From the IMG/VR virus record IMGVR_UViG_3300028887_000082: 64,000 nt of DNA. The stretch is one strand, 5' to 3'. The position numbers and the translations under genes are program-made. This DNA is from a virus. Taxonomy: Duplodnaviria > Heunggongvirae > Uroviricota > Caudoviricetes. Every line of letters starts with the position of its first letter. Position 1 is the stretch's first letter. Shown here one piece after another: positions 949 through 63,464 of this stretch. The notes under the pieces were generated by a model that had not been told where the DNA came from, searched no databases, and worked only from the letters and a program-made list of their open reading frames with translations.

Positions 949-967
949 CAAAAAATATTCAAAAATA

Positions 968-999
968 TTTGGTAGTTTCAAATTTTTTTGTTATCTTTG
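968..999 (+). promoter_or_regulatory. Bacteroidota-type promoter (-33 TTTGG, 20 nt, -7 TATCTTTG)
   Basis: AATATTTGGTAGT ... TATCTTTG; same architecture recurs before many genes in this window. Confidence 0.5.
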
Positions 1000-1169
1000 T
1001 ACTGTAAGTTCATTGAAATATTGATGCACATATAGGAACAACAAGATGGGGTACCTATAAGTCTCACATAAGGATTCTAGATTGAGGGGGTGTGAGAGAA
1101 GGGTACAAATAATGTTAAAGAGGATTCCCGACCCTTAATAGGAGGAGAAAAGCGCTCTCTCCGATCCTC

Positions 1170-1204
1170 TGACAACAGTGACTACGGAAATCTGTTGTGT
1201 TCTT
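1170..1204 (+). ncRNA. hairpin with conserved loop TGACTACGGAAAT (stem ACAACAG/CTGTTGT)
   Basis: 7-bp stem around a 13-nt loop, 4 nt upstream of tRNA-Leu(CAA); the same loop recurs at 1426-1448 with a different stem. Confidence 0.45.
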
Positions 1205-1207
1205 TAT

Positions 1208-1280
1208 GCCCAGGTGGGGGAATGGTAGACCCAGCTGTCTCAAAAGCAGCCGACCATCCGGTCATGTGAGTTCGAGTCTC
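1208..1280 (+). tRNA. tRNA-Leu (anticodon CAA), type II
   Basis: Acceptor GCCCAGG/CCTGGGC perfect; D-loop AATGGTAGA; anticodon stem GCTGT/GCAGC with loop CTCAAAA; long variable arm; T-arm GTGAG-TTCGAGT-CTCAC. Confidence 0.85.
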
Positions 1281-1425
1281 ACCCTGGGCACTTTGATGAA
1301 AATCCTAGGTGGGTGGTATCTATAGCAGACTCCTTTAAAATGGGGAAGGAGGAAAGATACCGAATACTGGACAGGTGGTTTCGTCTAGCATCCTGGTGAG
1401 GGGGAATGTCCTCACAAGACCACTT

Positions 1426-1462
1426 GAGAATGGTGACTACGGAATTCCATTTGTTTTCATTT
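1426..1462 (+). ncRNA. hairpin with conserved loop TGACTACGGAATT (stem AATGG/CCATT) plus T-rich tail
   Basis: Second copy of the TGACTACGGAA loop with a compensatory stem; followed by TTGTTTTCATTTTTTAT, so terminator-like. Confidence 0.4.
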
Positions 1463-1837
1463 TTTATGGTGGGGTTATCAAACTTAACCACCCGCATCCT
1501 TGAAGAGAATGTGTTGCCGAGCCGTGTCAAGTTTATCTTGTATCCGGAGGAGTGAAACTTCCAAGTTGACAGGTTATTGCACTCGCCTGTCAATTATTAC
1601 TGAACCCACCAGTAAGACTGTTAAGCAGTATATCAGTATGGTACATGGGAGTTGTGCATGAGCTGGCTGAAGAGTAGTTTCCGGATATGGTGTTGAAACC
1701 CGGGGAAAATGAAAAGTAAGTCAATAGCAATAGGGAACCGGTGGAGTTACTGTGACTTTGTAATTTTGTCCATTACAGAACCGGGGAAATAATGGAACAC
1801 CAATGTGGCTAAAATGGTAGGGATTCACAAAAATCAG

Positions 1838-1898
1838 TGAAGGTGGCCACACACCTGGACAATCACTGATTACGAAAATTATTTTTTATAAATATATA
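1838..1898 (+). terminator. stem-loop (ATCAGTGA...TCACTGAT) followed by T-rich run, upstream of tRNA-Glu
   Basis: 8-bp stem with a structured 21-nt loop, then TACGAAAATTATTTTTTAT. Confidence 0.4.
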
Positions 1899-1904
1899 AC
1901 AGTT

Positions 1905-1976
1905 GGCGCCCTCGTCTATCGGTTAGGACACGAGATTTTCATTCTCGGAAGAGGGGTTCGATTCCCCTGGGCGCTA
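1905..1976 (+). tRNA. tRNA-Glu (anticodon TTC)
   Basis: Acceptor GGCGCCC/GGGCGCT (G-U at 1:72); D-stem GTCT/GGAC; anticodon stem CGAGA/TCTCG with loop TTTTCAT; T-arm AGGGG-TTCGATT-CCCCT. Confidence 0.8.
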
Positions 1977-2037
1977 CTAATCAACCGGAAGGTTGTTTAC
2001 TATCCAGTCAATAATTCATGAATAAACCTGGGTAGAG

Positions 2038-2111: not shown

Positions 2112-2225
2112 GAAACATATCGCGGGGGAGTGAAACGGATAAGAACATCCCACAAGTTTGTTCAAAGATCATTACAGGCTCATAACCTGTAGATACTGGC
2201 TTCGACTGCCAGACCCGCAACAAAG

Positions 2226-2637: not shown

Positions 2638-2640
2638 CAA

Positions 2641-2822
2641 CACCTGGTGGACAAATGGTAAAGTCGCCCTATTGGGTAGGGAGGTGTGTAATAGAAGTTT
2701 TCCGGCAGTGAGGAGTAATGGAGTCGCGATCCACCGAAGGCACGGGAACGAGAATAAGCACAGGCCTGGATGTATTCGCGATGCTGAAGGGTGAATGGGG
2801 GTTCAATTCCCCTTCGAGGTGA
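2641..2822 (+). ncRNA. elongated tRNA-like gene (182 nt) with ~110-nt insertion after the anticodon region
   Basis: 5' part CACCTGG-TG-GAC-AATGGTAAA-GTC with stem-loop CCCT-ATTGGGT-AGGG (TGG anticodon-like); 3' part GGGGG-TTCAATT-CCCCT then CGAGGTG, which pairs 6/7 with the 5' acceptor; insert contains two copies of TCGCGAT. Confidence 0.4.
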
Positions 2823-3129
2823 CAAAGATTGTTGTGGTGTTGCAGAACTTTAAAAGGAACAACACAGGTGTAGAGGGAAACTTTAATGGGTAATTTTTTT
2901 TACCAGCTAACCTTCAGAGACCTCACCAAGGATGATGCTTCATCATGGAGGGCACTCCAAGATGACAAAAAGATAGTTACAGTGAGAGTCTTATTGAGAA
3001 CTGTTCGACCCAGGAGGAGTGATGTTTTAGAGCATGTTTGACTGTACGGGGATAAACGGTGGCGACCGGTGAGTTTTTCTGGGCACTTCTCAGAACAAAA
3101 ACAAAGAAAATTAACAAAACAGTCTTTAA

Positions 3130-3342: not shown

Positions 3343-3414
3343 GCCGATGTAGCTCAGTGGCAGAGCAGGGGTTTTGTAAACCTCAGGTCGAGATCTCGGT
3401 ATTCTCCATCGGCT
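3343..3414 (+). tRNA. tRNA-Thr (anticodon TGT) with non-canonical T-loop
   Basis: Acceptor GCCGATG/CATCGGC perfect; D-arm TAGCTCAGTGGCAGAGC; anticodon stem GGGGT/ACCTC with loop TTTGTAA; T-arm GAGAT-CTCGGTA-TTCTC (4 bp, unusual loop). Confidence 0.65.
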
Positions 3415-3472
3415 CAAAATTATTGAACTTGAACTTTCATAAATACTTTATAAGGATTATAAAAGTTCAACT

Positions 3473-4066: not shown

Positions 4067-4072
4067 TAATTT

Positions 4073-4227
4073 GCCCCAGTGGCTCAATGGTAGAGCAACG
4101 CACTTGTATAGATGGCGAAATTCCATTTTAAAAACTATGACTACATCAAAAGGCTCATAGGAGTGAGGGTTCGATTCCCTTATGTAGTCCAATGCGTAGG
4201 TTGCTGGTTCGATTCCGGCCTGGGGCT
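4073..4227 (+). tRNA. interrupted tRNA gene: 5' half + ~90-nt insertion in anticodon loop + 3' half; insertion contains a nested T-arm/acceptor minihelix
   Basis: Outer acceptor GCCCCAG...CTGGGGC perfect 7 bp; D-arm TGGCTCAATGGTAGAGC; anticodon stem ACGCA (4098-4102) pairs with TGCGT (4193-4197); T-arm GCTGG-TTCGATT-CCGGC; insert 4103-4192 begins CTTGTAT (TGT-like); nested ACTACAT...GAGGG-TTCGATT-CCCTT-ATGTAGT-CCA at 4140-4191. Confidence 0.6.
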
Positions 4228-7178: not shown

Positions 7179-7220
7179 TACATAAATAATACATAAATAA
7201 TAATAAAAAACTTAATTGAA

Positions 7221-8980: not shown

Positions 8981-8981
8981 A

Positions 8982-9008
8982 AGAGAGGATAAAACATCCT
9001 CTCTTTTG
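8982..9008 (+). terminator. rho-independent terminator (AGAGAGGAT-AAAAC-ATCCTCTCT-TTTG)
   Basis: Perfect 9-bp stem with T-run directly after the stop at 8980. Confidence 0.7.
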
Positions 9009-9031
9009 TACATAAATATTTTATAAAAACT

Positions 9032-9268
9032 TTGTTATATTTAATATACAAAATAAGTTATATGAGTATGAATGATTTGAAATACTTTGGTAAGGTGGTT
9101 GCCTTGTTTCTTGCAGGATTCATTGCCATCATCACAGCATCAGGTGTTTGGAATGGTGTAGCAGAAGGATGTGTTGATTCCTTCTATGGTTGGGTTGCTG
9201 GTATCAACTTCATCATCCAGGGATTTGGTATCTATTCACTTTATAAGAAATTATTCCCAAAAGAATAA
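9032..9268 (+). CDS. small membrane protein (78 aa)
   Basis: Two predicted TM helices (VVALFLAGFIAIITASGVW; AGINFIIQGFGIYSLY). Confidence 0.45.
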   Translation: MLYLIYKISYMSMNDLKYFGKVVALFLAGFIAIITASGVWNGVAEGCVDSFYGWVAGINFIIQGFGIYSLYKKLFPKE

Positions 9269-10513: not shown

Positions 10514-10541
10514 ATCCCGGATGAAAGTCCGGGATTTTTCG
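10514..10541 (+). terminator. rho-independent terminator (ATCCCGGA-TGAAAG-TCCGGGAT-TTTTT)
   Basis: Perfect 8-bp GC-rich stem plus T5. Confidence 0.8.
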
Positions 10542-10551
10542 TAAATATAGT

Positions 10552-10932
10552 ATGAAAAGATTTACAAACAGTGAGATTACATTTGGTGAGGAGATCCAAA
10601 TCAATGACTGGCAGGTCAGACTTCCTGTCATTGTTGATGGTAAGGAGATGTCTGTTGATGATGTGAACTTCATCATAGAACCTCATTATGTGTCAGGAGA
10701 GACATTGTATCAACCTCATATATTCATTGATGAAAGACTCCGGGACCAAGGTCTGGGATATGGAATCTACAAGGCATTCATACATGAGTTCGGGAACATA
10801 TACAGTTCCCACTGGTGTAGGACAAACAACAAGGAAATTATATCCATCTTCAACAAACTTGCACTGGAAGATGACATAGTGGTGGAGAAAAACAACAAAT
10901 ATTATTTCGCATATCTAAAGGGTTCAAGATAA
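10552..10932 (+). CDS. hypothetical protein (126 aa)
   Basis: + strand ORF bounded by terminators at 10514-10541 and 10921-10946. Confidence 0.55.
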   Translation: MKRFTNSEITFGEEIQINDWQVRLPVIVDGKEMSVDDVNFIIEPHYVSGETLYQPHIFIDERLRDQGLGYGIYKAFIHEFGNIYSSHWCRTNNKEIISIFNKLALEDDIVVEKNNKYYFAYLKGSR

Positions 10933-10946
10933 TTTGAACCTTTTTT
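10921..10946 (+). terminator. rho-independent terminator (GGTTCAA-GATAAT-TTGAACC-TTTTTT)
   Basis: Perfect 7-bp stem plus T6. Confidence 0.75.
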
Positions 10947-10978
10947 GTTATATTTAATCTGGATTATTTAATTGAATT

Positions 10979-13075: not shown

Positions 13076-13105
13076 ATTTTTGTTATATTTATAATTGAAC
13101 TTATA

Positions 13106-14206
13106 ATGTATTTATGTATGAATAAGAATTTTTTAGAAGATTTTTTGAAGACTTACAGACCTTCAGGGTTTGAACAGGAAGGTGCTGAAGTGTTTGTCAG
13201 TAATGCCTGTGGACTCAAAGGAGTCAAGAAAGAGTTTATTGATAAGATGTGGAATGCATGTGTGAGTGTGGGTAGTGAAAAGGAGGATGCACTGAAAATC
13301 CTCATCTCCGGTCACTCTGATCAGAACTGTCTCATTGTGACTGAAATCACAAAGAATGGTTTCCTCAAGTATGCAACCCAGGGTGGATTCTCTCCAAGGA
13401 CAGTAATTGATTCAGACCTCTTTGTCATCACAAACAATGATGGTGTGAAGAAACTTATCCCCTGCTTCTGTAGTTATAAAGCAATACATATAGAAAAACC
13501 GGATGACAGAAAGAAATGTCCAGAACATAAGGATCTCTATCTTGATTTGGGATGTACATCCAGGGAACAGGTTGAGAAACTCGGTGTACATATAGGTGAC
13601 CTGGTTGTATTCAACAACAGTGGTCTGAATATGGACTTTGGTCCTGATGGCAACTACATTGTAGGTTCAGGTCTTGATGATGGTGTTGCTTGCGGAATCG
13701 TTTATGATGTCCTGAAGAAACTTGATGAGAATGAACTCAAGGAGATGAACATCAGGGTATATGGTGCATGCATCACATCAGAGGAAACTGGTGCCAGGGG
13801 TGTTGGTCCTGTAGTAAGAAAGGTTCAGCCACATATCTCCATAGATATTGATGTATGTCATGACTGCACCAAGGAGATTGGTGAGGATGAAGGCCGGATT
13901 GCAAAGATGGGTGATGGTGCTGTCCTGAACTATGGTCCTGACAAATACAGACCTCTCAATGAAGACTTGAGACAGATTGCAAAGGATTATGACATCAAGT
14001 TGCAACTCATTGCCGGCAAGGCAGGAGGTACAAACACCAACAACATCCAGATGATGTCAGACAACTGTGCCACAACCCTGTTGAGTATCCCTTGCAGATA
14101 TATGCACAGCGGAACACATGAGATGGTCAATAAGGATGACATTGATGGTTGTGGTCAGCTCATATACAAGTTCATCAACAAGGTAGATCCAAAGAAGTAT
14201 GTATAA
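13106..14206 (+). CDS. M42-family metallo-aminopeptidase-like protein
   Basis: KILISGHSDQNCLIVTEITKNGFLKYATQGGFSPRTV parallels the M42 motif around the metal-binding His-x-Asp; downstream GSGLDDGVACGIV and D/E/H ligand-like residues. Confidence 0.65.
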   Translation: MYLCMNKNFLEDFLKTYRPSGFEQEGAEVFVSNACGLKGVKKEFIDKMWNACVSVGSEKEDALKILISGHSDQNCLIVTEITKNGFLKYATQGGFSPRTVIDSDLFVITNNDGVKKLIPCFCSYKAIHIEKPDDRKKCPEHKDLYLDLGCTSREQVEKLGVHIGDLVVFNNSGLNMDFGPDGNYIVGSGLDDGVACGIVYDVLKKLDENELKEMNIRVYGACITSEETGARGVGPVVRKVQPHISIDIDVCHDCTKEIGEDEGRIAKMGDGAVLNYGPDKYRPLNEDLRQIAKDYDIKLQLIAGKAGGTNTNNIQMMSDNCATTLLSIPCRYMHSGTHEMVNKDDIDGCGQLIYKFINKVDPKKYV

Positions 14207-15069: not shown

Positions 15070-15705
15070 TTGAAGAAAGAGTCAGGAAAACCTGACTCTT
15101 TTGTTATTTTTATGTTGTCAAAAAATGTATTTATTATGAGCAGACCAAACAAATGTATCAAGGATGAGAATGGAAAGGATCAGTGGATCTCCCGCAGTAC
15201 TGTGGTAATACCTATTGTATTCAAGATAGACAATGAAACCGGAGACATCTACACTATTGTGGAACAGAGAGGTAATGCAGTAACCCATCCTGGTGAATGG
15301 TGTTGTCCCTGTGGATTTATAGACTGGGATGAGACTCTTGAAGAGGCCTGTCAGAGGGAAGTGAGGGAAGAGACCGGAATCATCCTCAATCAGGAAAACA
15401 TCCATTTTATGTATGTCTATAGTGACCCCAAGAGTACCAATCAGACTGTTGACTTGTGGTATATGTGCTGGACAGATGCAGACATAGACACATCAAAGAT
15501 TGAAACAAAGGAAGAGGTTATGGATGTAAGGTGGCTGAAGGTCGGTAAGTTATACCGGGGTAGTACATTGTTCATCTTCAACACATCAATCAAAAACTGT
15601 TATGGTACCTGGGCATTTAAGACACATGCCGGCAGAGTCATAGAGATGTTGAAAACAATTGTCAAAGATGCCAAGAATGGTAGAGTGGTTGAAGTAAATG
15701 ATTAA
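15070..15705 (+). CDS. Nudix hydrolase (true start probably a downstream Met, e.g. ~15112/15136)
   Basis: Nudix box [23 protein letters not shown] (Gx5Ex7REVxEExGI). Confidence 0.75.
15076..15104 (+). terminator. terminator hairpin (AGAGTCAGG-AAAA-CCTGACTCT-TTTG) inside the 5' end of the next ORF call
   Basis: Perfect 9-bp stem plus T-run; implies the Nudix gene starts at a downstream Met. Confidence 0.7.
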
Positions 15706-17811: not shown

Positions 17812-17839
17812 ATTATTTTTCAATTTACATAAATAACGT

Positions 17840-18280
17840 ATGGGAAAATATAGAATGTACAGCTTGGTGCTGAGGCAACTAAACCCAATTCAAAAAGGTG
17901 TTCAATCAGCACACTCAATCGTCGAATACGCAAAGAAATTCTACAAATCCACTGAATATATACAGTGGGTTAATGTGGATAAGACCATTATCATACTTGA
18001 TGGTGGAACATATCCTGAATTGAAAGAATGTAGGGACACCCTCATCGATTTAGGTGTACCTTATATGGCTTTCTATGAAGAAGATCTTGGTGATGTGATG
18101 ACTTCAATATCATTCCTGGTTGAAGACAAGGTCTGGGATTCGAAGTCATATCCTTCTTATGAAGATGAACTTGATGAGAATTCATCTGAATCCGAAAATC
18201 CGGTATGGCTCATTATGATGGGTGGAAAACGGAATCTTGAATTAAGGAAATTCCTGATGAGTAAAAGACTTTCAGCATAA
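17840..18280 (+). CDS. hypothetical protein; weak resemblance to PTH2-type peptidyl-tRNA hydrolase
   Basis: LVLRQLNPIQKGVQSAHSIVEY resembles the PTH2 motif (MxxGKxxAQxxHA); only a short segment matches. Confidence 0.35.
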   Translation: MGKYRMYSLVLRQLNPIQKGVQSAHSIVEYAKKFYKSTEYIQWVNVDKTIIILDGGTYPELKECRDTLIDLGVPYMAFYEEDLGDVMTSISFLVEDKVWDSKSYPSYEDELDENSSESENPVWLIMMGGKRNLELRKFLMSKRLSA

Positions 18281-18311
18281 AAGTGATGAACAAAAGTTCA
18301 TCACTTTTTTG
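18280..18311 (+). terminator. rho-independent terminator (AGTGATGAAC-AAAA-GTTCATCACT-TTTTT)
   Basis: Perfect 10-bp stem plus T6; followed by GTTATATTT. Confidence 0.8.
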
Positions 18312-18654
18312 TTATATTTACTTTATAATACTTAAGGTTATGACTGATAATGAACTGTTCCACTATATCTGTATGTATGTGACCGATGATGTCTTCACAT
18401 TTGAGGAAAGGAGGAGTATGAGTGTGGAGGATTTCCACCAGTATGTAAGAGAACACTTCATACCCATACCCAAATCAGAACTCATCACAGGTGTAATTTA
18501 TGATGGATATTGCCGGAACACCAACAGGGCAACATGGGATGGGGAGGAATTTCATTATAAAAGACATAAGTTCGGTACCACATTTGATGACACAATCAAC
18601 CATTATGAAGATGATGAAGGTTATGATGTGTTTGTACCCATAAAGGAGATTTGA
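18283..18654 (+). CDS. hypothetical protein (true start probably MTDNELFHY at ~18340)
   Basis: The ORF's 5' end overlaps the terminator hairpin, so the internal ATG is more likely. Confidence 0.5.
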   Translation: MMNKSSSLFCYIYFIILKVMTDNELFHYICMYVTDDVFTFEERRSMSVEDFHQYVREHFIPIPKSELITGVIYDGYCRNTNRATWDGEEFHYKRHKFGTTFDDTINHYEDDEGYDVFVPIKEI

Positions 18655-19746: not shown

Positions 19747-19767
19747 AATATGTGAAAAATATCATGA

Positions 19768-19796
19768 AAAGTGGAGATATACTCTCCACTTTTGTT
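19768..19796 (+). terminator. rho-independent terminator (GTGGAGA-TATAC-TCTCCAC-TTTTG)
   Basis: Perfect 7-bp stem plus T-run after tdk. Confidence 0.7.
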
Positions 19797-19823
19797 ATTT
19801 TTATAATGAAAAATTATTGAGTT

Positions 19824-23140: not shown

Positions 23141-23690
23141 TTCCAAATCCCTACATTACCAACTTTGTCTGGAAGGTGCCAAGTGGTTACATAGGAAAAA
23201 GAATGACTACAAGAAGTGCCCAAATAAAGACTGTCACTTGAAGTTCTGCCGGAACTGTGAGACTTACGATTACGTTGCGGTGGAACTCTGTGTATATGGT
23301 GCAGAGAACACTGATGTATGGGGTTACTCATGTGGAAGTCATACCAGTGCAGTCATTGAAGTAAAGACATCTCATTCCGATTTTCTGGCAGATCAGAAGA
23401 AATGGTGGAGAAGTAAGGAAGCAGAGAATGGTGGGTTCCAGGCTGGACAAAGGAGATGGTATCTATGTCCGGAAGGTGTCATCAAACCTGATGAACTTCC
23501 CGAGGGTTGGGGACTTCTTTACTGGGATGGCAAGAAGGTATATCATGTGGTGAATCCTGTTATGACAGACAGGAAAACATCCAGGGCAGATATGATAATG
23601 CTGACATCTATATTGAGGCGAGAGAATTTCCCCAAGAAGATTTACAACTACAGATACACTAATCCAAATTTCCAAAATGATTTGGAATAA
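23121..23690 (+). CDS. hypothetical Cys-rich protein (189 aa)
   Basis: CPNKDCHLKFCRNCETYDY...C...C cluster suggests a Zn-binding module. Confidence 0.5.
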   Translation: MLKTMSDSKSLHYQLCLEGAKWLHRKKNDYKKCPNKDCHLKFCRNCETYDYVAVELCVYGAENTDVWGYSCGSHTSAVIEVKTSHSDFLADQKKWWRSKEAENGGFQAGQRRWYLCPEGVIKPDELPEGWGLLYWDGKKVYHVVNPVMTDRKTSRADMIMLTSILRRENFPKKIYNYRYTNPNFQNDLE

Positions 23691-23712
23691 CAAGAAAAAA
23701 TCATTATCTTTG
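23681..23712 (+). promoter_or_regulatory. Bacteroidota-type promoter (TTTGG, 20 nt, TATCTTTG)
   Basis: TTTGGAATAACAAGAAAAAATCATTATCTTTGTAATGG upstream of ORF ~23726. Confidence 0.5.
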
Positions 23713-23823
23713 TAATGGAGAAATAATGTTTAAGAATATGTGGATAGTATTATTACTGTTGATTGGATTGATAGCTTGCCTTTGGAAAGGTGAAGGTAGT
23801 AAGTAATTTTAAAAAATATAATT

Positions 23824-30677: not shown

Positions 30678-30691
30678 AAAATGCGAAAAAA

Positions 30692-30722
30692 TTTGTTGGT
30701 TCAGATTTTTTTATTATCTTTG
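30692..30722 (+). promoter_or_regulatory. Bacteroidota-type promoter (TTTGTTGG, 19 nt, TATCTTTG)
   Basis: Upstream of 30744..31349. Confidence 0.5.
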
Positions 30723-30743
30723 TAATAGAAATAGAAAGGATTT

Positions 30744-36185: not shown

Positions 36186-36705
36186 TTTTAAGAAAATAGT
36201 TTTCCTGGATATAGATGGTGTATTGGCATCCATCCAATTCTTGTGTGATCATCCCAAGTCATCAGGAATTGATCCGGAAAAGTGTAAACTCCTCAACACC
36301 CTTTCTGAAATAGGTGCTGAAATTGTCATATCCTCTTCCTGGGGACACGACAATGGCAGAACTGAAAAGACATTGAGACAATGTGGGTTGACCCTTCCAA
36401 TCATAGGTTACACCCAACATTTTTCCCAGGACTGGATATGTAGGGGTAATGAAATTGAGAAGTGGTTGACAGAGATGTATGGTGGTATGGGTACCAAGTT
36501 TGGTTACGATTGCGATACGGGTGAACCATACTACAGGGAACACTTTAGTGATAATGATGTTGATTATGAGTATGTTATCTTTGATGATGACACTGATTTC
36601 CTGCTTGGACAAAAAGACAACTTCATCAAAATAGATGAAAAGACAGGTCTGACAGAAGAGGACATCAACAAAGCAATTAAGATACTTACAAGAAGTGGCG
36701 AATAA
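36178..36705 (+). CDS. HAD-superfamily phosphatase (polynucleotide 3'-phosphatase-like)
   Basis: Motif I VFLDIDGVLAS (DxDGxL); motif II IVISSSW; lies 1.6 kb downstream of the RNA ligase. Confidence 0.55.
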   Translation: MNDFKKIVFLDIDGVLASIQFLCDHPKSSGIDPEKCKLLNTLSEIGAEIVISSSWGHDNGRTEKTLRQCGLTLPIIGYTQHFSQDWICRGNEIEKWLTEMYGGMGTKFGYDCDTGEPYYREHFSDNDVDYEYVIFDDDTDFLLGQKDNFIKIDEKTGLTEEDINKAIKILTRSGE

Positions 36706-36726
36706 ATTTCGCCATTTTTTTTTTGT
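36697..36726 (+). terminator. rho-independent terminator (GGCGAA-ATAAAT-TTCGCC-TTTTTTTTTT)
   Basis: Perfect 6-bp GC stem plus T10, overlapping the gene's stop. Confidence 0.75.
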
Positions 36727-36752
36727 TATTTCAAAAAAATATATTATCTTTG
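36722..36752 (+). promoter_or_regulatory. Bacteroidota-type promoter (TTTG, 19 nt, TATCTTTG)
   Basis: TTTTGTTATTTCAAAAAAATATATTATCTTTGTAATAG upstream of 36775. Confidence 0.55.
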
Positions 36753-36774
36753 TAATAGATATAAACAAACAGAT

Positions 36775-40326: not shown

Positions 40327-40711
40327 TATGGATAGAGAAAAATTATTGACAGTATTCAATTTGAGTAACAGTGCATTGATATTCACCTCATTTGGTGTAT
40401 TCAATATGGCAATAAACAACCACAAGGGTGCATTCATCCTGTTCGGTATTGCCCTGGTGGAACTCCTGGCGATGTCCATCACACTCGGAATTGGAGTGTT
40501 TGGAAAGAATAAATGAACATCCAATGGAAGGAAAGAAGTTAGGCAGGAAGGATAAGGAAATGCTCAAGTCGGCACTTGGTGCCATCCACTTCGCAGATGA
40601 CAGGTATTACTTTGATGGTGGAGAATACACATCCATTGATGTAATATCCTGACTGACTGATCTGGTCCTGAATAAATGACTTAATTTGGTATATTTATAT
40701 AAAGGTAAGAT

Positions 40712-43819: not shown

Positions 43820-44233
43820 ATGAGTATCTGGGGTGATATGCTTGACCGGGGAACCGGTGAAAAGATAAAGAAGGAGGATCTCATTGCCGATCCACTGGGG
43901 ACACTTGAAAAAAGTGTTATAGTGTATATAGGACCTGTGGACAGAACAGTGTTTCCCACAATGCCGGCGGAAAAAGGACAACTGTACTATGTAAAGGATG
44001 AGGTAACCATTGAAGGTGTAACCTTTCCAGCAGGTTCAGGTATAGTCTATGATGGAACCAAGTGGGTAAATGTAGGTGGTTACACTGTTGAAAGGGTAGA
44101 TGCCAATATCGATTACCTTAAACCTGATTCTGGTTTGGAATATATCCCTGAGCCGCCGCGAATTACAATAGCAGCATATGACGATGACGGAGTATATGTA
44201 CCAAAGTCAATAGGATGGAAAAATAATTTTTGA
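43820..44233 (+). CDS. tandem-array member 5 (137 aa): MSIWGDMLDRGTGEKIKKEDLIAD...
   Basis: N-terminal motif; unrelated beta-rich C-terminal domain. Confidence 0.6.
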   Translation: MSIWGDMLDRGTGEKIKKEDLIADPLGTLEKSVIVYIGPVDRTVFPTMPAEKGQLYYVKDEVTIEGVTFPAGSGIVYDGTKWVNVGGYTVERVDANIDYLKPDSGLEYIPEPPRITIAAYDDDGVYVPKSIGWKNNF

Positions 44234-44259
44234 TTAATCAAGAAAAATCATTATATTTG
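44229..44259 (+). promoter_or_regulatory. Bacteroidota-type promoter (TTTG, 19 nt, TATATTTG)
   Basis: TTTTGATTAATCAAGAAAAATCATTATATTTGTAAGAG upstream of 44286. Confidence 0.5.
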
Positions 44260-44285
44260 TAAGAGAAGAGACATTTAATCTTATT

Positions 44286-48536: not shown

Positions 48537-48562
48537 TTGCTGCGATAGCGGTTGCGACAATA

Positions 48563-48597: not shown

Positions 48598-48895
48598 TTA
48601 AATACCATCACATCCTTCTTCACCAGAATCAACTTCTGCATAGTCCTCACCTTTGGGGATTGGGTCTTTAAACCTCTTCTCAAACACACCTATACCCAGG
48701 AGGGCAAATGCACCAATCATCATGGTCATTATTGCCTCACCAAGCCAAACTGCCTGAACATTCCTGAACACACTGATTACAATGACAGTGAGTAAGACAA
48801 TAAGAATGAATGTACCCAACACTCTCTTGGATGACACTCTTCCATTCGCACCGGTGAACATTGTGTCAAAGAATCTGACCTTTTTGTTTTTCATG
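48598..48895 (-). CDS. small membrane protein (~98 aa), minus strand
   Basis: Internal Met MKNKKVRFFDTMF... of minus ORF 48598..49056; two TM helices; ends at the bidirectional terminator. Confidence 0.5.
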
Positions 48896-48930
48896 TTGTA
48901 TGTGTTTATTATAAAATATTTATGTGAATA

Positions 48931-48962
48931 TTTGGATATTTCAAAAAAACATATTATATTTG
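48931..48962 (+). promoter_or_regulatory. Bacteroidota-type promoter (TTTGG, 20 nt, TATATTTG)
   Basis: TTTGGATATTTCAAAAAAACATATTATATTTGTAG upstream of 48986. Confidence 0.5.
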
Positions 48963-48985
48963 TAGTAAGAATAAAAATATAAACT

Positions 48986-49444: not shown

Positions 49445-49653
49445 CGGACGATTACGAACGACAAAATAAAAGGCATTATGTTTTATATTTATAAAAAGAA
49501 CTTGAACACAGGCAAGTCCTCATTCTTTATGAAGACTGCTGATAACAAACTGGCTGAGTCCAGGATTAGGGAACTGAATGCCGAGTCATTGTATGATGAT
49601 GAGTACTACTACATTTCAGAGACACCTATCAATGGTTAAAAAATCTAAAAATA

Positions 49654-49685
49654 TTTGGTAGTATCGATTTTTTGTTTTATATTTG
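49654..49685 (+). promoter_or_regulatory. Bacteroidota-type promoter (AATATTTGGTAGT, 20 nt, TATATTTG)
   Basis: Extended -33 AATATTTGGTAG shared with promoters at 968, 51855, 59112, 62661. Confidence 0.5.
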
Positions 49686-49713
49686 TATCAGAAACCAAAA
49701 ACAATAAACAATT

Positions 49714-50874: not shown

Positions 50875-50912
50875 TTTGAAGAAGGTTGTCTGTGAAGATA
50901 ACCTTTTTTGTT
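50875..50912 (+). terminator. terminator hairpin (AAGGTT-GTCTGTGAAGAT-AACCTT-TTTTG)
   Basis: 6-bp stem, 12-nt loop, T-run; followed by GTTATATTT. Confidence 0.5.
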
Positions 50913-50925
50913 ATATTTACATATA

Positions 50926-51788: not shown

Positions 51789-51811
51789 ACCTTGCGGTCA
51801 CGACCTTACGA

Positions 51812-51847
51812 AAGATGAAGAAACAAAAAATCTTCATCTTTTTTTTC
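51812..51847 (+). terminator. rho-independent terminator (AAGATGAAG-AAACAAAAAAT-CTTCATCTT-TTTTTTT)
   Basis: Perfect 9-bp stem plus T8. Confidence 0.75.
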
Positions 51848-51854
51848 ATTTTTA

Positions 51855-51886
51855 TTTGGTAGTTTCAAAAAAAACCTTTATATTTG
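51855..51886 (+). promoter_or_regulatory. Bacteroidota-type promoter (TTTATTTGGTAGT, 20 nt, TATATTTG)
   Basis: Upstream of 51911. Confidence 0.5.
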
Positions 51887-51910
51887 TAGTGTAAATCAAG
51901 TAACAAAGTT

Positions 51911-56685: not shown

Positions 56686-56703
56686 CTATAAGTAAAACTT
56701 GAA

Positions 56704-56735
56704 AAAAGACCATCCGAAAGGGTGGTCTTTTTTTG
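56704..56735 (+). terminator. rho-independent terminator (AGACCATCC-GAAA-GGGTGGTCT-TTTTTTT)
   Basis: 9-bp stem (one G-U) plus T7. Confidence 0.75.
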
Positions 56736-56790
56736 TTATATTTTTTATAAAATGACATAAATATCTATATAGTGTTTATAAGTTTTTCAA

Positions 56791-57063
56791 ATGGCAGACG
56801 ATATTGAAACCATATCTTACATAAACCCTGGTGACGGACAGAATCATCCCATTGATGCTGTTACAGTTGGAGGTAAAACCATACCGGGTGCAACATCTCT
56901 CCTTCCATCAGTGTCTAATTCAGACAATGGAAAGGTGTTGAGAGTTGTCAATGGACAGTGGGTCATTGTTACTCCTGCCATCATCTACACAGGTGATGGT
57001 GAGCCATCCGACAGTGAAGGAAATGATGGAGACATCTACATACAAACAAATATAGAGATCTAA
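56791..57063 (+). CDS. hypothetical protein (90 aa)
   Basis: + strand ORF. Confidence 0.4.
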   Translation: MADDIETISYINPGDGQNHPIDAVTVGGKTIPGATSLLPSVSNSDNGKVLRVVNGQWVIVTPAIIYTGDGEPSDSEGNDGDIYIQTNIEI

Positions 57064-57065
57064 TT

Positions 57066-59036: not shown

Positions 59037-59057
59037 AACGGTTGCGACAACGAAGCA

Positions 59058-59095
59058 CGAATCACCAATTCCAAAAGGAGTTGGTGATTTTTTTG
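59058..59095 (+). terminator. rho-independent terminator (AATCACCAA-...-TTGGTGATT-TTTTTTG)
   Basis: 9-bp stem plus T7, downstream of the GC-rich post-stop motif. Confidence 0.7.
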
Positions 59096-59111
59096 TTAAA
59101 AAGTACGAAAA

Positions 59112-59145
59112 TATTTGGAGGTATCAAATATTTCTTGTATATTCG
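59112..59145 (+). promoter_or_regulatory. Bacteroidota-type promoter (AATATTTGGAGGT, 20 nt, TATATTCG variant)
   Basis: Upstream of 59176. Confidence 0.4.
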
Positions 59146-59175
59146 TGACAGAAACCAATAAGAAAGAGGGTATAT

Positions 59176-59606: not shown

Positions 59607-59674
59607 CAATCTGTCATACAAACCCGACGGTACAGCATTTGTATTATATATTGAGGATTTAAAACAACAAAGAT

Positions 59675-60514
59675 ATGGTTATAAATTACACCAACCTTAA
59701 TGAGAACATCAACATCTATTTCAAGGAGATCCGCAACTTCGCATCCCTGACAAGAGAAGATGAGGTAAGACTGTTCTCAAGAATCAAGACAGGTGACAAG
59801 TCAGCACAGGCTGAAATCTTCAACAGGATGGCCAAGCTGGCGGTCAACATTGCCAAGACATACACAGGTGATGCAGACCTTTTGGAAGATCTCATCCAGG
59901 AGGCAAACATTGGTATCCTTACCGCCATTGACAAGTTTGACCTCAATTCCGGTTTCAGATTTTCATCATATGCCCGTTACTGGATGAAGGCCGCCATTTC
60001 CAAGTATCTTGATGAAATGGGTGTGGTACGTCACTGCAATCCCCATCTTGTTGACCTGGCCAACAAAATCCGTGAGAAGTTCTACAAGGAGAACCAAAGG
60101 GATATCACCAGTGTGGAACTGATGGATATGTTGGAGGATGCAGGTGAGGTGGTTGATGACATCAAGTCAATCACCAGCATCACCAATGTGAGGATTGATC
60201 TTCCTTATGATTGTGATGAGTCCGGAAAGCCAAAGGGCGAATATGGAGACTTCGCAGACCGTACTGCCTGTGACAATGGGTTTGTAGAAAAGGAAAGAGC
60301 CGAGGAACTTTCAGAAGACATCAGACGAAGACTCTCAAGACTCACTCCGAGGGAGCAGCAGTTGGTCCTGTTGATGTACGGTTTCGTCACCGGAGAAGAA
60401 ATGGGTTATGACGCTGTTACAGAAAGGTGGAATGAAGGTAAGCCCGAGAAGGAACAGCTCACACAGGAGAGAGTCCGTCAGATCATCAAGGGTGCACTCA
60501 AAAAGATGAAGTAA
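59675..60514 (+). CDS. RNA polymerase sigma-70 family factor
   Basis: Region 2: LIQEANIGILTAIDKFDLNSGFRFSSYARYWMKAAISKYL; region-4-like LTPREQQLVLLMYGF...; 279 aa. Confidence 0.8.
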   Translation: MVINYTNLNENINIYFKEIRNFASLTREDEVRLFSRIKTGDKSAQAEIFNRMAKLAVNIAKTYTGDADLLEDLIQEANIGILTAIDKFDLNSGFRFSSYARYWMKAAISKYLDEMGVVRHCNPHLVDLANKIREKFYKENQRDITSVELMDMLEDAGEVVDDIKSITSITNVRIDLPYDCDESGKPKGEYGDFADRTACDNGFVEKERAEELSEDIRRRLSRLTPREQQLVLLMYGFVTGEEMGYDAVTERWNEGKPEKEQLTQERVRQIIKGALKKMK

Positions 60515-60980: not shown

Positions 60981-61017
60981 TAAATTGTAAATAACTTTTG
61001 CTCACCTTATAAACGAG

Positions 61018-61341
61018 GTGAGCAAAATAAAACAGATAGGAAATATGGAAATAGAGGACATTACAGATCTCAATCCGGAGGAAGTACAGAATCTGGAGGT
61101 AAAGGAGTCAATTGAGGGGTGTGGTTTTGTTGCAAGAGACAAGTGTGGAGACTTGTATTTCTTCAACACTTTTGAGAAACCCATAAGAGATAAGTTTCTT
61201 GGTATCAAGAGTGGTAGATGGGTTTCAGTGAAAAGATGTCTTGTATTCAGACTGAATCCCAAAAGTTTCAAGAATGTTACCTGGGAGTCAGAGCCATTGA
61301 TGGTGACACTGACAATAAAACCTAATGACTGGACAAAATGA
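61018..61341 (+). CDS. hypothetical protein (107 aa)
   Basis: + strand ORF. Confidence 0.45.
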   Translation: MSKIKQIGNMEIEDITDLNPEEVQNLEVKESIEGCGFVARDKCGDLYFFNTFEKPIRDKFLGIKSGRWVSVKRCLVFRLNPKSFKNVTWESEPLMVTLTIKPNDWTK

Positions 61342-61568
61342 CAGACAAAAAGAAAAAAATTAGGGATATTCTCCTGCCTACACTGGTACTCCAGATGTTC
61401 GCTCATAAGACTTCTGATGAAACATTGGAGGAAATTACAGATTCCTTCAATGATGACATCAAGAAACTTGAAGAACAGATGAAGCAGTCAATCATTGATG
61501 AGAAAATCTCCAATGACAGGTACAACAAGGAACAGATGAAATTCAGAAAAAGGTTTTATAAGAAATGA
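61338..61568 (+). CDS. hypothetical small protein (76 aa)
   Basis: + strand ORF. Confidence 0.4.
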   Translation: MTDKKKKIRDILLPTLVLQMFAHKTSDETLEEITDSFNDDIKKLEEQMKQSIIDEKISNDRYNKEQMKFRKRFYKK

Positions 61569-61900
61569 ACAACTTTACAAGTATAGAGGAAGGTTACACC
61601 CTGTTACACCTGGGTGTCAATAGGATCAGTGCAGATATGTACTATGGTTACAAGAGGGAGAAACCCGTTCCTCTTCCATACAATGATGTGGAGATAACCC
61701 ATTTATGTACACCTTGCTGGACAGTTGGGGCACTGTTGGAAATCCTGCCGTCAGGTAGTTCAATTGTCAAGAAAAGTGAGGGTGCATATTACTGCACATG
61801 TCCACTGAAGAAGGATGAGGTTCCCACAACATATGAGACTCCTGTCAAGGCAGCATATGAAATGGTGGTCTGGTTGTTGAAAAAGAAAAGAAACAAGTAA
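61565..61900 (+). CDS. hypothetical protein (111 aa)
   Basis: + strand ORF. Confidence 0.45.
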   Translation: MNNFTSIEEGYTLLHLGVNRISADMYYGYKREKPVPLPYNDVEITHLCTPCWTVGALLEILPSGSSIVKKSEGAYYCTCPLKKDEVPTTYETPVKAAYEMVVWLLKKKRNK

Positions 61901-62154
61901 TGTCAAGGGAATGGATAGAACATCAGGACAACAGTGGTGAAACCATCTTCAGGGTGGGAGACACTGTTGAGGCAGGTGACATCAGATATGAACTGGGAAC
62001 CTGTTTCAGACCTGGTATATCCATCATTGAAATCAACATCACAAGGAGATCAATCACAACCCACAATGAAGGGTTTGGAAATTTCCAGATGACATACAGT
62101 AAGAATATGTCCGAAGAGGACTTCTATAATGAAATCAAAAAGAGACTGATATGA
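61900..62154 (+). CDS. hypothetical protein (84 aa)
   Basis: + strand ORF. Confidence 0.4.
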   Translation: MSREWIEHQDNSGETIFRVGDTVEAGDIRYELGTCFRPGISIIEINITRRSITTHNEGFGNFQMTYSKNMSEEDFYNEIKKRLI

Positions 62155-62594
62155 AAGAGATAACATACAGTAACAGTATGAATAATGTCTACCTGGCAGA
62201 CAAGGGTGAATACAAGGGAGTCAAGTACTTCATCATTGCTGGTGGTATCCATCCCTGTGCATATGTCATGTGTGACGAGGAGTTTGTCAACAACCACAGG
62301 AATGAGTGGGGAGACCTGGACTGCATCAGTGTGCATGGTGGCGTCACCTGGTTGGAAGATGCCGACCATCTGAAGTGTCACCCTGATGACTGCACAGGTA
62401 TATGCTTCGGTTGGGACTATGGTCATGCCGGTGACTGGGCAGGTTACCATCAGGATGTGGAGAATATGGTCTATGAGAACCACAAATACACTCTGATGGA
62501 AATCCAGTATCACTGTAAGGATGCCATTGACCAGTACCTGAAAGCAATCAGGAAAGAGAGAAGAGGTGACAACTACAACAAAAGTGAAAAGTGA
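62151..62594 (+). CDS. hypothetical Cys/His-rich protein (147 aa)
   Basis: Multiple C/H residues (CAYVMCDEEFVNNH...CHPDDCTGICFGWDYGH), possibly metal-binding. Confidence 0.5.
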   Translation: MKEITYSNSMNNVYLADKGEYKGVKYFIIAGGIHPCAYVMCDEEFVNNHRNEWGDLDCISVHGGVTWLEDADHLKCHPDDCTGICFGWDYGHAGDWAGYHQDVENMVYENHKYTLMEIQYHCKDAIDQYLKAIRKERRGDNYNKSEK

Positions 62595-62660
62595 TATGAA
62601 ACCTTGCGATAACGACCCGCGATAAACCCTTTGTGTTAAAAAGTCTAAAAATATCAGGAA

Positions 62661-62695
62661 ATATTTGGTGGTTCCGAAAATATATTGTATCTTTA
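62661..62695 (+). promoter_or_regulatory. Bacteroidota-type promoter (AATATTTGGTGGT, 20 nt, TATCTTTA variant)
   Basis: Upstream of 62728. Confidence 0.4.
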
Positions 62696-62727
62696 CATCA
62701 GAAACAAGAAACAAAAACATAAAAGAT

Positions 62728-63297
62728 ATGAGTACAACAAACTACAACTTCAAGAGAATGGATGAGGATGAGAAGATCCTTGCTATGGTAGAGTTGCTTG
62801 GCGCAAATTCCCCAGAGACAGCAGTCACAATGGAGCAGATAATCGCCAAGGGTATCGAGACAGGAGCCACTGAAGACTATTTCAGAGAGAACTGGCATGG
62901 TTACAAGGAGGGAGATCATCCCTGGTGGCAGAAGGTCGCCCCTATGATGGGTGTAGGCACAATCGAGGAGGTCAGAGCACATGACTGTCCCCATCTTCAC
63001 CGCCGTCAGGTCAAGGAAATGAAGAATGACCGCAAGACCAATGTCATGAGATACTGGATTGATGAGTCAATGACTCACAAACAGGTCATCAGACAGAAGA
63101 AGGTCAAGACAAAGGTCAATGTTCTTCCTGAGATTCCACCTATGGAGGTAAGGTTCAGAGGTGAGGATGGTGCACAGCAGAAGGCTAAGGAGAATCCAGA
63201 CTGGATTGCCATCAATGGAAGGGTTTACAGCCGCCAGTTCATCCTGGATCACCCAGAGAAATTCAATTCTGTTGAGATTGCTATGGCCAGACAGTAA
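62728..63297 (+). CDS. hypothetical protein (189 aa; internal ATG of ORF 62665..63297)
   Basis: Starts MSTTNYNFKRM downstream of the promoter. Confidence 0.5.
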   Translation: MSTTNYNFKRMDEDEKILAMVELLGANSPETAVTMEQIIAKGIETGATEDYFRENWHGYKEGDHPWWQKVAPMMGVGTIEEVRAHDCPHLHRRQVKEMKNDRKTNVMRYWIDESMTHKQVIRQKKVKTKVNVLPEIPPMEVRFRGEDGAQQKAKENPDWIAINGRVYSRQFILDHPEKFNSVEIAMARQ

Positions 63298-63433
63298 CAC
63301 TTAAATCATCACAATATGAAAAAGGGAAGCAAAACAATCCTGGGAGAGTACACAATATCTGACAATCCCATTGAAGGAAGACGAGTGGCAGTCCATTACA
63401 GTGACGGTTCCACAAAAATAATCTGCAAATAAT

Positions 63434-63464
63434 TTGGAATATCCGAAAAGATCCATTATATTTG
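63434..63464 (+). promoter_or_regulatory. Bacteroidota-type promoter (TTTGG, 20 nt, TATATTTG)
   Basis: AATTTGGAATATCCGAAAAGATCCATTATATTTGTAATG upstream of 63484. Confidence 0.5.

Follow-up and report, generated by a model that had tools for sequence, protein, structure and literature searches.

Bacteroidota-type promoters and two further conserved upstream boxes accompany a divergent sigma factor gene in a very large uncultured phage

A 64,000-nucleotide (nt) stretch of the virus record IMGVR_UViG_3300028887_000082 (hereafter the window) carries many promoter-like intergenic signals together with a gene for a sigma-70-family protein of 279 amino acids (aa; 59675..60514, + strand), which raises the question of which signals the host polymerase would read by itself and which would be left to a phage factor. 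The window has a G+C content of 39%, and its + strand carries nearly all genes. A previous sequence-only reading had described -33/-7 promoters of Bacteroidota primary-sigma type and had suggested that those sharing a block AATATTTGGTAG(T) form a temporal class, perhaps read by the phage sigma. We compared the window with its relatives, that is, with loci around sigma homologues fetched from eight related phages of 32-50% G+C; individual related phage loci are designated L002, L004, L005, L007, L018-L021 and L035, the last being a distant relative. Three signal classes could be separated. We put at about 0.75 the probability that the 11 sites of class 1 are Bacteroidota primary-sigma promoters, most likely used by the host holoenzyme without any phage factor, and we consider class 2, a box found mostly at hairpins, and class 3, the octamer CATAAATA, as candidate targets of phage factors.

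The pattern TTTG-N18-22-TANNTTTG matched the window 11 times versus 1.9 expected, a count that none of 100 shuffles reached, and nine of these matches are intergenic on the + strand. With the + strand only and a spacer of 19-21 nt, nine matches were found versus 0.42 expected (dinucleotide shuffles, none of 300 reaching four). As an independent approach, we trained a two-block weight matrix solely on 41 TTTGG-N-TAnnTT(T/C)G sites from the loci of the eight relatives; the window was not used. This matrix found exactly 11 + strand sites in the window, with scores of 10-51, and none on the minus strand, while shuffled sequences gave 0-1 site each (~0.1). The -33 TTTG elements start at 968, 23681, 30692, 36722, 44229, 48931, 49654, 51855, 59114, 62664 and 63433. 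All 11 sites are intergenic, on the + strand and co-oriented with + strand genes or transfer RNA (tRNA) genes, and the outermost ones (968 and 63433-63464) agree with the span of 963..63464 proposed earlier. The previous count of at least 11 intergenic -33/-7 sites was borne out by the matrix, far above shuffles.

The -7 box is an exact TAnnTTTG at nine of the 11 sites, not at all of them as the sequence-only reading had it, the other two being one-base variants (TATATTCG at 59138 and TATCTTTA at 62688), and G is absent from the two middle -7 positions at all 11. The spacer measures 20 nt at eight window sites and 19 nt at three, and 20 nt in 41 of the 41 sites of the relatives. The expected short distance to a start codon was also found: the end of the -7 box lies 13-32 nt before an ATG (among the ten gene-proximal sites, 13 nt for the box at 23705 and 19-32 nt for the nine others), the differing site being 968-999, which precedes tRNAs rather than a start codon. 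A window site typically consists of an A-rich tract, TTTG(G), a spacer of 19-20 nt, TAT(C/A)TTTG and a TA(G)T(G/A) start region. The consensus of the relatives reads A-rich tract, TTTGG, (A/T)A(R)(T/A)TT, C, (A/G), A- or T-run, TATCTTTG and TA-t-a-aA; this module of ~50 nt, upstream A-tract included, is repeated 41 times in relatives of differing base composition. Counted from the start of TTTG, a C is conserved 11 nt downstream in class 1 sites, and several orthologous promoters share a AAAAAAGT tract farther upstream.

The published Bacteroidota consensus combines -33 TTTG with -7 TANNTTTG, refined to TAHHTTTG, with T-12, A-11, T-8, T-7, T-6 and G-5 as its conserved bases (PMC6847099). Class 1 agrees with it in both elements, in the lack of G at -10/-9 and in its AT-rich spacer motifs. 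For a host control, a Bacteroidales sigma probe matched database proteins at 93-100%, some of them named RpoD or SigA (Prevotellaceae, Paludibacteraceae, Phocaeicola). The rpoD promoter at the one Bacteroidales genomic locus that we fetched reads TTTG-N20-TAACTTTG-TAG with an A-rich spacer. Since class 1 has the layout of this host rpoD promoter, it would be a near-optimal host-type promoter. A search of IMG/VR with the exact class 1 pattern gave 11 contigs, picked by the motif alone, whose sites are generic -33/-7 ones. Collectively, sequence, spacing, strand and position are as expected, and the prediction that class 1 sites are promoters of the Bacteroidota primary-sigma type is well supported, in line with the consensus that the sequence-only reading had recognized.

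Bayley in 2000 and later work reportedly described the sigma-ABfr promoters of Bacteroidota, with -33 TTTG and -7 TAnnTTTG. The phage sites share with them the two elements at 19-21 nt, the lack of G in the middle of the -7 box, the AT-rich spacer and short leaders without a Shine-Dalgarno sequence. They differ in being far more uniform, in a -33 element fully conserved as TTTGG, where that of Flavobacterium johnsoniae is weak, and in adding the spacer C, the A- or T-run and the upstream AAAAAAGT tract. Promoters of this kind are known from phages as well. According to PMC11554821 and bioRxiv 10.1101/2025.03.18.644028, -33/-7 promoters of Bacteroides phages run on the host machinery as strong constitutive parts, among them P_BfP1E6 from a B. 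fragilis phage, a genetic part of Whitaker et al. 2017, and predicted promoters as well as the criteria for predicting them have been given for B. fragilis phage Bf12P1 (PMC13139388). As is proposed here, phages thus carry -33/-7 promoters that run on the polymerase of the host, and some of those promoters stand before early, middle and late clusters. In contrast, they belong to small phages that are not reported to encode a sigma, and the likeness to P_BfP1E6 concerns the two core elements.

The start-codon context points to the same phylum. Before 117 start codons, the frequency of A was 0.65 at -13, 0.58 at -12, 0.56 at -11, 0.56 at -6 and 0.53 at -3, and Shine-Dalgarno-like words occurred in 11% of upstream regions versus 19% in the background, that is, without enrichment. 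DUF3575 domains are typical of Bacteroidota outer membranes. One phage protein (5062-6132) combines a DUF3575 beta-barrel domain with an OmpA-like part, an unusual cargo gene and a clue to the host, and BACON and Fib_succ_major domains are present in the relatives. In F. johnsoniae, A-3, A-6, A-12 and A-13 are positive determinants of translation starts that lack a Shine-Dalgarno sequence, which is also a Bacteroidetes signature (PMC6847099). Promoter type, start-codon context and these domains together fit a predicted assignment of the host, at the level of the phylum, to Bacteroidota.

The sequence-only reading had also placed terminators, followed by GTTATATTT, directly before most class 1 promoters. 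Eight hairpins in the window fold at -11 to -21 kcal/mol (z-scores of -3.3 to -7.1) with T-runs of 4-10 directly after them, and these elements are predicted intrinsic terminators. Such a hairpin stands before class 1 at only three of the 11 sites (36690-36720, 59059-59090 and a weaker one ending at ~51840). GTTATATTT in turn belongs to a separate set of sites: it occurs at eight + strand intergenic sites, with a further + strand copy within a gene and a single minus-strand copy, and its intergenic copies mostly adjoin hairpins, with no TAnnTTTG or -33/-7 promoter downstream. The picture of many short, insulated transcription units suits 44-64 kb and 9-20 kb, but 24-30, 31-36.7 and 37-44 kb consist of 5-7 kb of packed genes without any signal.

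These hairpin-associated boxes make up class 2, which has nine window sites (9031, 10944, 13079, 15100, 18308, 19791, 50907, 56732 and a variant at 40685); TGTTAT[AT]TTT occurs nine times on the + strand versus 0.23 expected. When eight class 2 sites from four phages were aligned, TTTTGTTATATTT was the sole invariant block (13 columns), while the hairpin sequences differed. The window and the relatives together hold 23 copies, and ~19 of the 22 gene-strand copies directly adjoin a hairpin and T-run (flanks read by eye); two copies in the window have no hairpin. From the end of the hexamer to the ATG there are mostly 16-28 nt, with outliers of 1, 7 and 48 nt. Fused to most of the terminators in the form TTTTG-T-TATATTT-A, the box lines up with a -7 box, but it has A or T in place of the near-invariant G-5 of host promoters, carries TG at -15/-14 and lacks a -33 element. 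It shows the features of an extended -10 promoter, having an invariant TG-T-TATATT and a -35 position that falls within hairpins of variable sequence. No relaxed -7 box was seen by eye 19-21 nt downstream of the TTTG in the sequences of class 2 sites. In the orthologues of an FKBP gene, the (A/G)TG(A) start region after the class 2 box matches that of class 1. We read class 2 as a terminator fused to a putative second class of promoter, separate from class 1.

Class 3, the octamer CATAAATA, has 11 copies in the window, ten of them non-coding, which places it at the top of 168 8-mers of the same composition, whose mean non-coding count is 1.4. The copies are oriented with their gene on either strand, and both minus-strand genes of the window have a CATAAATA on their own strand 30-41 nt upstream (box start to ATG). 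In the relatives, CATAAATA lies on both strands between genes for glycosidase-like or leucine-rich-repeat (LRR) proteins of 1048-1359 aa, which are tail-fibre-like, and a module of a 90-aa and a ~600-aa open reading frame (ORF); these large opposite-strand glycosidase-like or LRR genes carry their own CATAAATA, facing the class 2/class 3 module. There are hints that class 3 is a late signal. A late date would follow if the 310-aa protein encoded on the minus strand behind a CATAAATA (12143-13075) were a capsid protein, because its gene would then be a late one; that candidate was rejected. It had a weak match to the PHROG 'major head protein' (E 9e-5) and no PDB sequence match, and its AlphaFold model (predicted local distance difference test score, pLDDT, of 81) found no PDB fold match at E <= 0.001. 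The 310-aa protein is clade-wide: the 120 homologues listed, from contigs as long as 378 kb, share 55% identity or more with it. Pfam gave no domain for it, and its model, a confident one, shows a helix of 60 residues.

Orthologous genes keep their upstream class in the relatives, L035 included, at 55-65% protein identity, and no change of class was seen. Class 2 is kept by the IMPDH-like, M42, NUDIX and methyltransferase genes, by the 104-aa ORF at 18340 and by the FKBP gene, which lies past the end of the window; class 3 by the 310-aa gene, the hydrolase gene and the 90-aa module; class 1 by the SLT-like gene, the sigma operon and the WYL_2 gene. Among the computational arguments for a difference in function between the three boxes, this stability is the strongest, and it is because orthologous sites keep their class that we favor reading them as a temporal series.

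What, then, could the phage sigma read? The protein scores above the cut-offs of Pfam Sigma70_r1_2, Sigma70_r2 and Sigma70_r4, lacks region 1.1, and aligns over its full length to RpoD/RpoS models and to solved SigA chains, with 30-32% identity to Bacteroidales sigma-A versus 29% to B. subtilis SigA. Its region 2.4 reads K-A (WMKA) instead of the R-Q of Bacteroidales (WIRQS) and B. subtilis, which we take to be E. coli R436/Q437. In region 4.2 it has Q (TQER) where both have R (R584) in the TRERxRQ helix, and the turn of the helix-turn-helix carries an insertion in the phage sigma and in most family members. The recognition residues of Bacteroidales RpoD, combined with close similarity to it, were not found. 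Because the DNA-reading residues of regions 2.4 and 4.2 are changed, the phage sigma is unlikely to read a near-perfect host promoter; judging by analogy, it would more likely read class 2 and/or class 3 than the AATATTTGGTAG subclass. At the region 3.0 columns equivalent to E. coli H455/E458, which contact TG, H and D are found in the window protein, V/K, R/W, S/Y and R/T in members of its family and N/G in host sigma-A; this lack of conservation in the family speaks against a classical extended -10 mechanism.

The sigma gene takes the third place of an operon whose class 1 promoter has a weakened -7 box. Directly upstream of the gene itself lies a conserved GTATTATATA box (59641-59652), for which no other intergenic site was found in the window and which may be a private promoter or operator of the sigma gene. 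In the form GTA(T)TATATA(G/T), this box stands 25-35 nt before the sigma ATG in eight of nine phages (the window, L002, L004, L005, L007, L018, L019 and L021).

Other assignments of the three classes have to be weighed against this one. The proposal that the AATATTTGGTAG(T) promoters make up a temporal class of their own for the phage sigma, with the other -33/-7 sites left to host sigma-A, can point to a TTTGG-T-R-G-T sub-variant that occurs in five window sites and in about a third of the relatives' sites, is kept before the sigma operon in most relatives and has a CGA-repeat element upstream of three of the five window sites. The exact 12-mer, however, is present only twice (964 and 49650) and not in five promoters as had been stated; five match only with 1-2 mismatches, and at two mismatches the 14 copies versus 9.7 by chance are no excess. 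AATATTTGG alone occurs in five promoters and TTTGGTAGT in three, and since the TTTGGTAGT sites have the three best scores of the clade matrix (51, 48 and 42), the block is the clade consensus and not the mark of a class. The orthologous promoters of the SLT gene do not share it, the window having GGTAGT where L004 has GGACAA, and it does not co-vary with the type of spacer or of -7 box. The residues with which the phage sigma would read -12 and -35/-33, moreover, are not those of host sigma-A, so that a shared promoter is unlikely, and we consider a discrete class of this kind very improbable. Sub-variants are retained at some orthologous promoters (TTTGGAAAATCCAG before WYL_2 genes, TTTGGT(G/A)GTCTCGTTTTTTTG before the sigma operon), which suggests that fine structure inside class 1 is under selection, possibly owing to overlapping operators. 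The phage sigma might instead read all of class 1 as a sigma-A-like copy that boosts or takes over transcription, the extended conservation being its specificity. The uniformity of the sites, whose spacer is exactly 20 nt in all those of the relatives, the consensus that goes beyond that of the host, the absence of region 1.1, as in Bacteroidota sigma-A (PMC6847099), and the slightly greater nearness to Bacteroidales sigma-A than to Bacillus SigA would suit this. But the sigma gene itself stands behind class 1, so that class 1 has to be fired by some other factor beforehand; the rpoD promoter of the host is laid out in the same way, TTTGG...TATCTTTGTA sites of a similar kind are present on further viral contigs found by motif only, and phage -33/-7 promoters are known to be active in uninfected Bacteroides (PMC11554821). 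With regions 2.4 and 4.2 altered as well, we regard this as improbable. That the repeated motifs stem from an intergenic cassette, mobile or recently duplicated, rather than being selected signals is hardly credible: some sites are highly alike (968, 49654 and 51855, for example), but conservation is confined to the motif positions while flanks, hairpins and leaders differ, orthologous sites are retained at the protein identities and across the range of G+C given above, and strand and distance to start codons are strictly constrained.

For class 2, the alternative is that the GTTATATTT box is not a promoter but an extension of the terminator (a U-rich tail, a pause or an RNA-end signal), the downstream genes being reached by read-through or other signals. 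The frequent contact with hairpin and T-run speaks for it, and the terminators that precede class 1 promoters also finish in TTTTTGTTA or TTTTTGTAA. Hairpin-less copies are nevertheless kept in divergent intergenic regions (13079 in the window and its L035 orthologue; 7144 in L002), the 13-nt box is invariant while the hairpins vary, its distance to most ATGs is constrained, the GTGA start region of the FKBP orthologues is in the register of class 1, and for several genes the box is the sole candidate signal that separates a strong terminator from the ATG. We think this alternative unlikely, though it deserves serious consideration. Several observations weigh against the scheme that we prefer, in which class 1 is host-driven and classes 2 and 3 depend on the phage. 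One host terminator ends much like class 2, in TTTTT-GTTATG (TTTTT-GTTATGTATT), and class 2 could be part of a terminator; its TG is invariant, although the TG-reading residues of region 3.0 are not conserved in the sigma family. The class 1 consensus exceeds the textbook host one (TTTGG, spacer C, A- or T-run, upstream AAAAAAGT), and orthologous promoters keep their own spacer sub-variant, in which a phage factor or an operator could be involved. Transcription starts at all 11 class 1 sites are predictions from the DNA sequence. We infer the host phylum, too, from sequence features: the earlier prediction of Bacteroidota agrees with start-codon context, DUF3575 and BACON/Fib_succ_major, whereas an alignment of the sigma family against 185,579 species genomes gave no Bacteroidota match, prophage or close sigma relative, the only matches being short region-2 alignments in alphaproteobacterial metagenome-assembled genomes. 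Finally, no recognizable virion gene lies within the window, and the temporal labels rest on gene content and on neighbors in the relatives.

In the scheme that we prefer, host RNA polymerase holoenzyme without a phage factor would start host-dependent, probably early, units from the 11 class 1 sites, and classes 2 and 3 would need phage factors; we infer both the recognition by host sigma-A and the early timing. The sigma gene would be expressed from its class 1 promoter with the weakened -7 box, and the phage sigma would then read class 2 and/or class 3. More specifically, and tentatively, since we hold it somewhat less probable than its negation, the phage sigma may steer the host core polymerase to promoters closed to the Bacteroidota primary sigma, namely the terminator-fused TTTTG-T-TATATTT-A, a TATAAT-like extended -10, or CATAAATA.

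Comparable programmes exist elsewhere. SPO1, with gp28 and gp33/34, has a programme of the phage-sigma type. Phages phiEco32 and 7-11 encode a sigma-70-family factor with the motif TAATGTATA (PMC4331800), and group 2 jumbo phages encode complete RpoD-like sigmas (PMC7824862). The likeness lies in host-type promoters for early genes including the sigma gene, in short phage boxes without a clear -35 before later genes, and in a mostly one-stranded genome of many units. The differences are that the host phylum here has a non-canonical primary sigma, that the boxes TTTTGTTATATTTA and CATAAATA are new sequences, that no anti-sigma factor was identified here, and that the link from sigma to box is here proposed by analogy. 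The late promoters of T4, TATAAATA, are read by gp55 with gp33 and the sliding clamp. CATAAATA matches TATAAATA at seven of eight positions, also lacks an upstream element and stands before likely virion genes in the relatives; unlike in T4, no gp55 or gp33 homologue was seen among the window ORFs scanned, the sigma is a full-length RpoD-like one, and a TATAA half-motif is frequent ~3 nt downstream.

The class 1 sites are as follows, all on the + strand. The highest score (51.0) belongs to 956..1004, with TTTG at 968-971, a 20-nt spacer and TATCTTTG at 992-999; it lies after tRNA-Glu and before the next tRNA block (tRNA-Leu at 1208). The transcript predicted from this promoter opens with a conserved GTAAGTTCATTGA(A/T)ATTG leader (1000-1060), with ~200 nt of unassigned sequence from there to tRNA-Leu, and the same leader follows two class 1 promoters in the tRNA region of L035 (~17640-17690 and ~17960-18010, minus strand). 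Site 23669..23717 (TTTG 23681, TATCTTTG 23705-23712, score 27.2) is followed by an ORF for a 26-aa membrane peptide (23726) and by a series of small ORFs, and site 30680..30727 (TTTG 30692, 19-nt spacer, TATCTTTG 30715-30722, score 31.1) precedes the ATG at 30744. At 36690..36757 a hairpin (36690-36720, -15.8 kcal/mol, z -6.0) is fused to the promoter in that the end of its T-run is the -33 TTTG (36722-36725), followed by TATCTTTG at 36745-36752 and the ATG at 36775 (score 13.8). The weakest site (score 10.2) is 44217..44264, with TTTG at 44229, a 19-nt spacer and TATATTTG at 44252-44259, before the nucleotidyltransferase gene that starts at ATG 44286. Site 48919..48967 (TTTG 48931, TATATTTG 48955-48962, ATG 48986, score 35.4) has on the other strand a CATAAATA (48917-48924) facing the minus-strand gene 48598-48894. 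Site 49642..49690 carries the AATATTTGGTAGT block (TTTG 49654, TATATTTG 49678-49685, ATG 49714, score 48.1).

After the methyltransferase gene, the module 51793..51891 comprises a CGA-repeat element (51793-51815), a weak hairpin and a class 1 promoter (TTTG 51855, TATATTTG 51879-51886, ATG 51911, score 42.2) with orthologues in L004 and L007. Before the sigma-gene operon, 59042..59150 comprises a CGA-repeat (59042-59062), a hairpin (59059-59090, -20 kcal/mol, z -6.8) and a class 1 promoter with TTTG at 59114 and the weakened -7 box TATATTCG at 59138-59145 (ATG 59176, score 34.2); its TTCG -7 variant is kept in L002, L004, L005 and L007, hence in five phages with the window. At 62604..62700 a CGA-repeat (62604-62625) is followed by TTTG at 62664, the variant -7 box TATCTTTA at 62688-62695 and the ATG at 62728 (score 33.1). 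The last site, 63421..63469, has TTTG at 63433, TATATTTG at 63457-63464 and an ATG at 63484 (score 36.8). TTTGGAAWATCC(A/G) promoters like it precede genes with a WYL_2 domain in seven relatives, the WYL_2 gene of this phage lying past the window end. A hairpin lies directly upstream of the -33 of the WYL_2 promoter in L005 (~17720-17760), L019 (~14490-14530), L020 (~12220-12260) and L021 (~17590-17630); its stems vary and are still complementary (GGGGAAC/GTTCCCC, GGGGGAC/GTCCCCC, CCAGGGAA/TTCCCTGG and CCTGGGGC/GCCCCAGG), around an A-rich loop with AAAAAAGT.

The CGA-repeat is a CG-rich element of three CGA/CGR repeats ~6-7 nt apart, for example TTGCGATAACGACCCGCGATAA, without an Rfam match. 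Besides the copies at 59042-59062 and 62604-62625 and the variant at 51793-51815, the window has one at 48540-48560 and a variant at 49447-49465; the relatives have copies in L002 (9176, 13904), L004 (8923, 9601), L005 (8689) and L007 (169, 9619, 11545, 13923, 16708). They stand right after stop codons and 25-55 nt upstream of a class 1 -33, with or without a hairpin between, and could be the binding site of a regulator or an RNA element of the 3' end.

The class 2 sites are likewise on the + strand. At 8983..9042 a hairpin, a CATAAATA (9011-9018) and the class 2 box TTTGTTATATTT (9031-9042) precede the ATG at 9062. The site at 10917..10955 joins a hairpin (10917-10944, z -3.3) to TTTGTTATATTT (10944-10955) before the ATG of the IMPDH-like dehydrogenase gene (10979), and the same module precedes the L035 orthologue. 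In the 30-nt divergent intergenic region before the M42 peptidase gene (ATG 13106), the box at 13079..13090 has no hairpin, nor has its L035 orthologue. Site 15075..15111 (hairpin 15075-15102, z -5.3; TTTGTTATTTTT 15100-15111), before the NUDIX gene, and site 18279..18319 (hairpin 18279-18308, z -7.1; TTTGTTATATTT 18308-18319; ATG 18340) are both kept in L035. Site 19767..19802 (hairpin 19767-19793, z -5.1; TTTGTTATTTTT 19791-19802) precedes the ATG at 19824, and the hairpin-less variant TTTGGTATATTT at 40685..40696 the ATG at 40712. Site 50877..50918 (hairpin 50877-50910, z -6.0; TTTGTTATATTT 50907-50918) is kept in L004 and L020. Here the ATG of the D12 methyltransferase gene (50925) comes 6 nt past the 12-nt box in three phages (50907-50927 in the window, 8040-8062 in L004, 1494-1516 in L020), and the N-terminus MI(I/V)PPIKIQGKK is common to the window and L004; because the ATG follows at so short a distance, the predicted mRNA is probably leaderless or nearly so. 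Last, 56700..56763 holds a hairpin (56700-56735, z -6.5), a class 2 box (56732-56743) and a class 3 CATAAATA (56756-56763) before the ATG of the 90-aa ORF (56791), which is followed by a 656-aa ORF, the module spanning 56791-59036; the 656-aa protein had no family or PDB match. In the Bacteroidales genome locus (L033), the terminator upstream of rpoD (9986-10024) has the tail TTTTT-GTTATGTATT, and at ~11034-11070 a hairpin is followed by TTTTTTTA-TATCTTTG, that is, by a -7 box right after a terminator, without a -33.

Among the other class 3 sites, CATAAATA at 17828..17835 (+ strand) begins 12 nt before the A of the ATG of the hydrolase gene (17840), with spacing and sequence identical in L035, and the variant CGTAAATA at 10540-10547 (+ strand) likewise begins 12 nt before its ATG (10552). 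On the minus strand, CATAAATA at 13109..13116 stands 41 nt before the 310-aa gene and is kept in L035. On the + strand, CATAAATA at 3438..3445 is followed by an ATG 35 nt on (3473). Further copies lie at 7181 and 7192 (before 7221), 9324 and 9556, and a doubtful one at 435 adjoins a tRNA.

The window has 12-13 tRNA genes, all within its first 9.5 kb. Rfam adds a tRNA at 3343-3414 that ARAGORN overlooked, and a tRNA-like fragment lies at ~4070-4110; the long unassigned stretches between tRNA genes are in the intervals 1292-1904, 2112-2555, 2639-3129, 3343-3414 and 4067-4111. The Rfam scan returned tRNAs only, the intergenic elements being without a match, and a scan for E. coli-type -35/-10 promoters found no part of the window above shuffles. 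The other genes, with functions in RNA repair and nucleotide metabolism among them, encode Thg1, an RlaP-like nucleotidyltransferase, an HD protein, an RNA ligase, a NUDIX hydrolase, an IMPDH-like dehydrogenase, a D12 methyltransferase, a Dda-like helicase and an M42 peptidase, besides the sigma. GenBank phages gave no DNA match to the window and matched the sigma and the helicase at only 26-34% at the protein level, the best helicase match (34% identity) being to a crAss-like phage, a further indirect pointer to a Bacteroidota host. A single-protein search of IMG/VR with the phage sigma returned no relatives. The sigma and the 310-aa protein are members of large families found in metagenomes only, on contigs of 113-378 kb, and the window's own copy of the 310-aa protein sits on a contig of 153.6 kb. 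The source clade is one of very large uncultured phages with no cultured relative.

That a Bacteroidota phage uses Bacteroidota-type promoters is ordinary. Here, promoter type and start-codon context together predict a host, at the level of the phylum, for an uncultured clade of very large phages, and three separable, conserved classes of signal beside a divergent phage sigma make up a testable set. If the phage sigma does read class 2 or class 3, a clade of huge Bacteroidota phages (up to ~375 kb) would have a three-tier transcriptional switch, and this would to our knowledge be the first phage sigma/promoter pair described for Bacteroidota and a candidate orthogonal pair for the engineering of gut Bacteroides.

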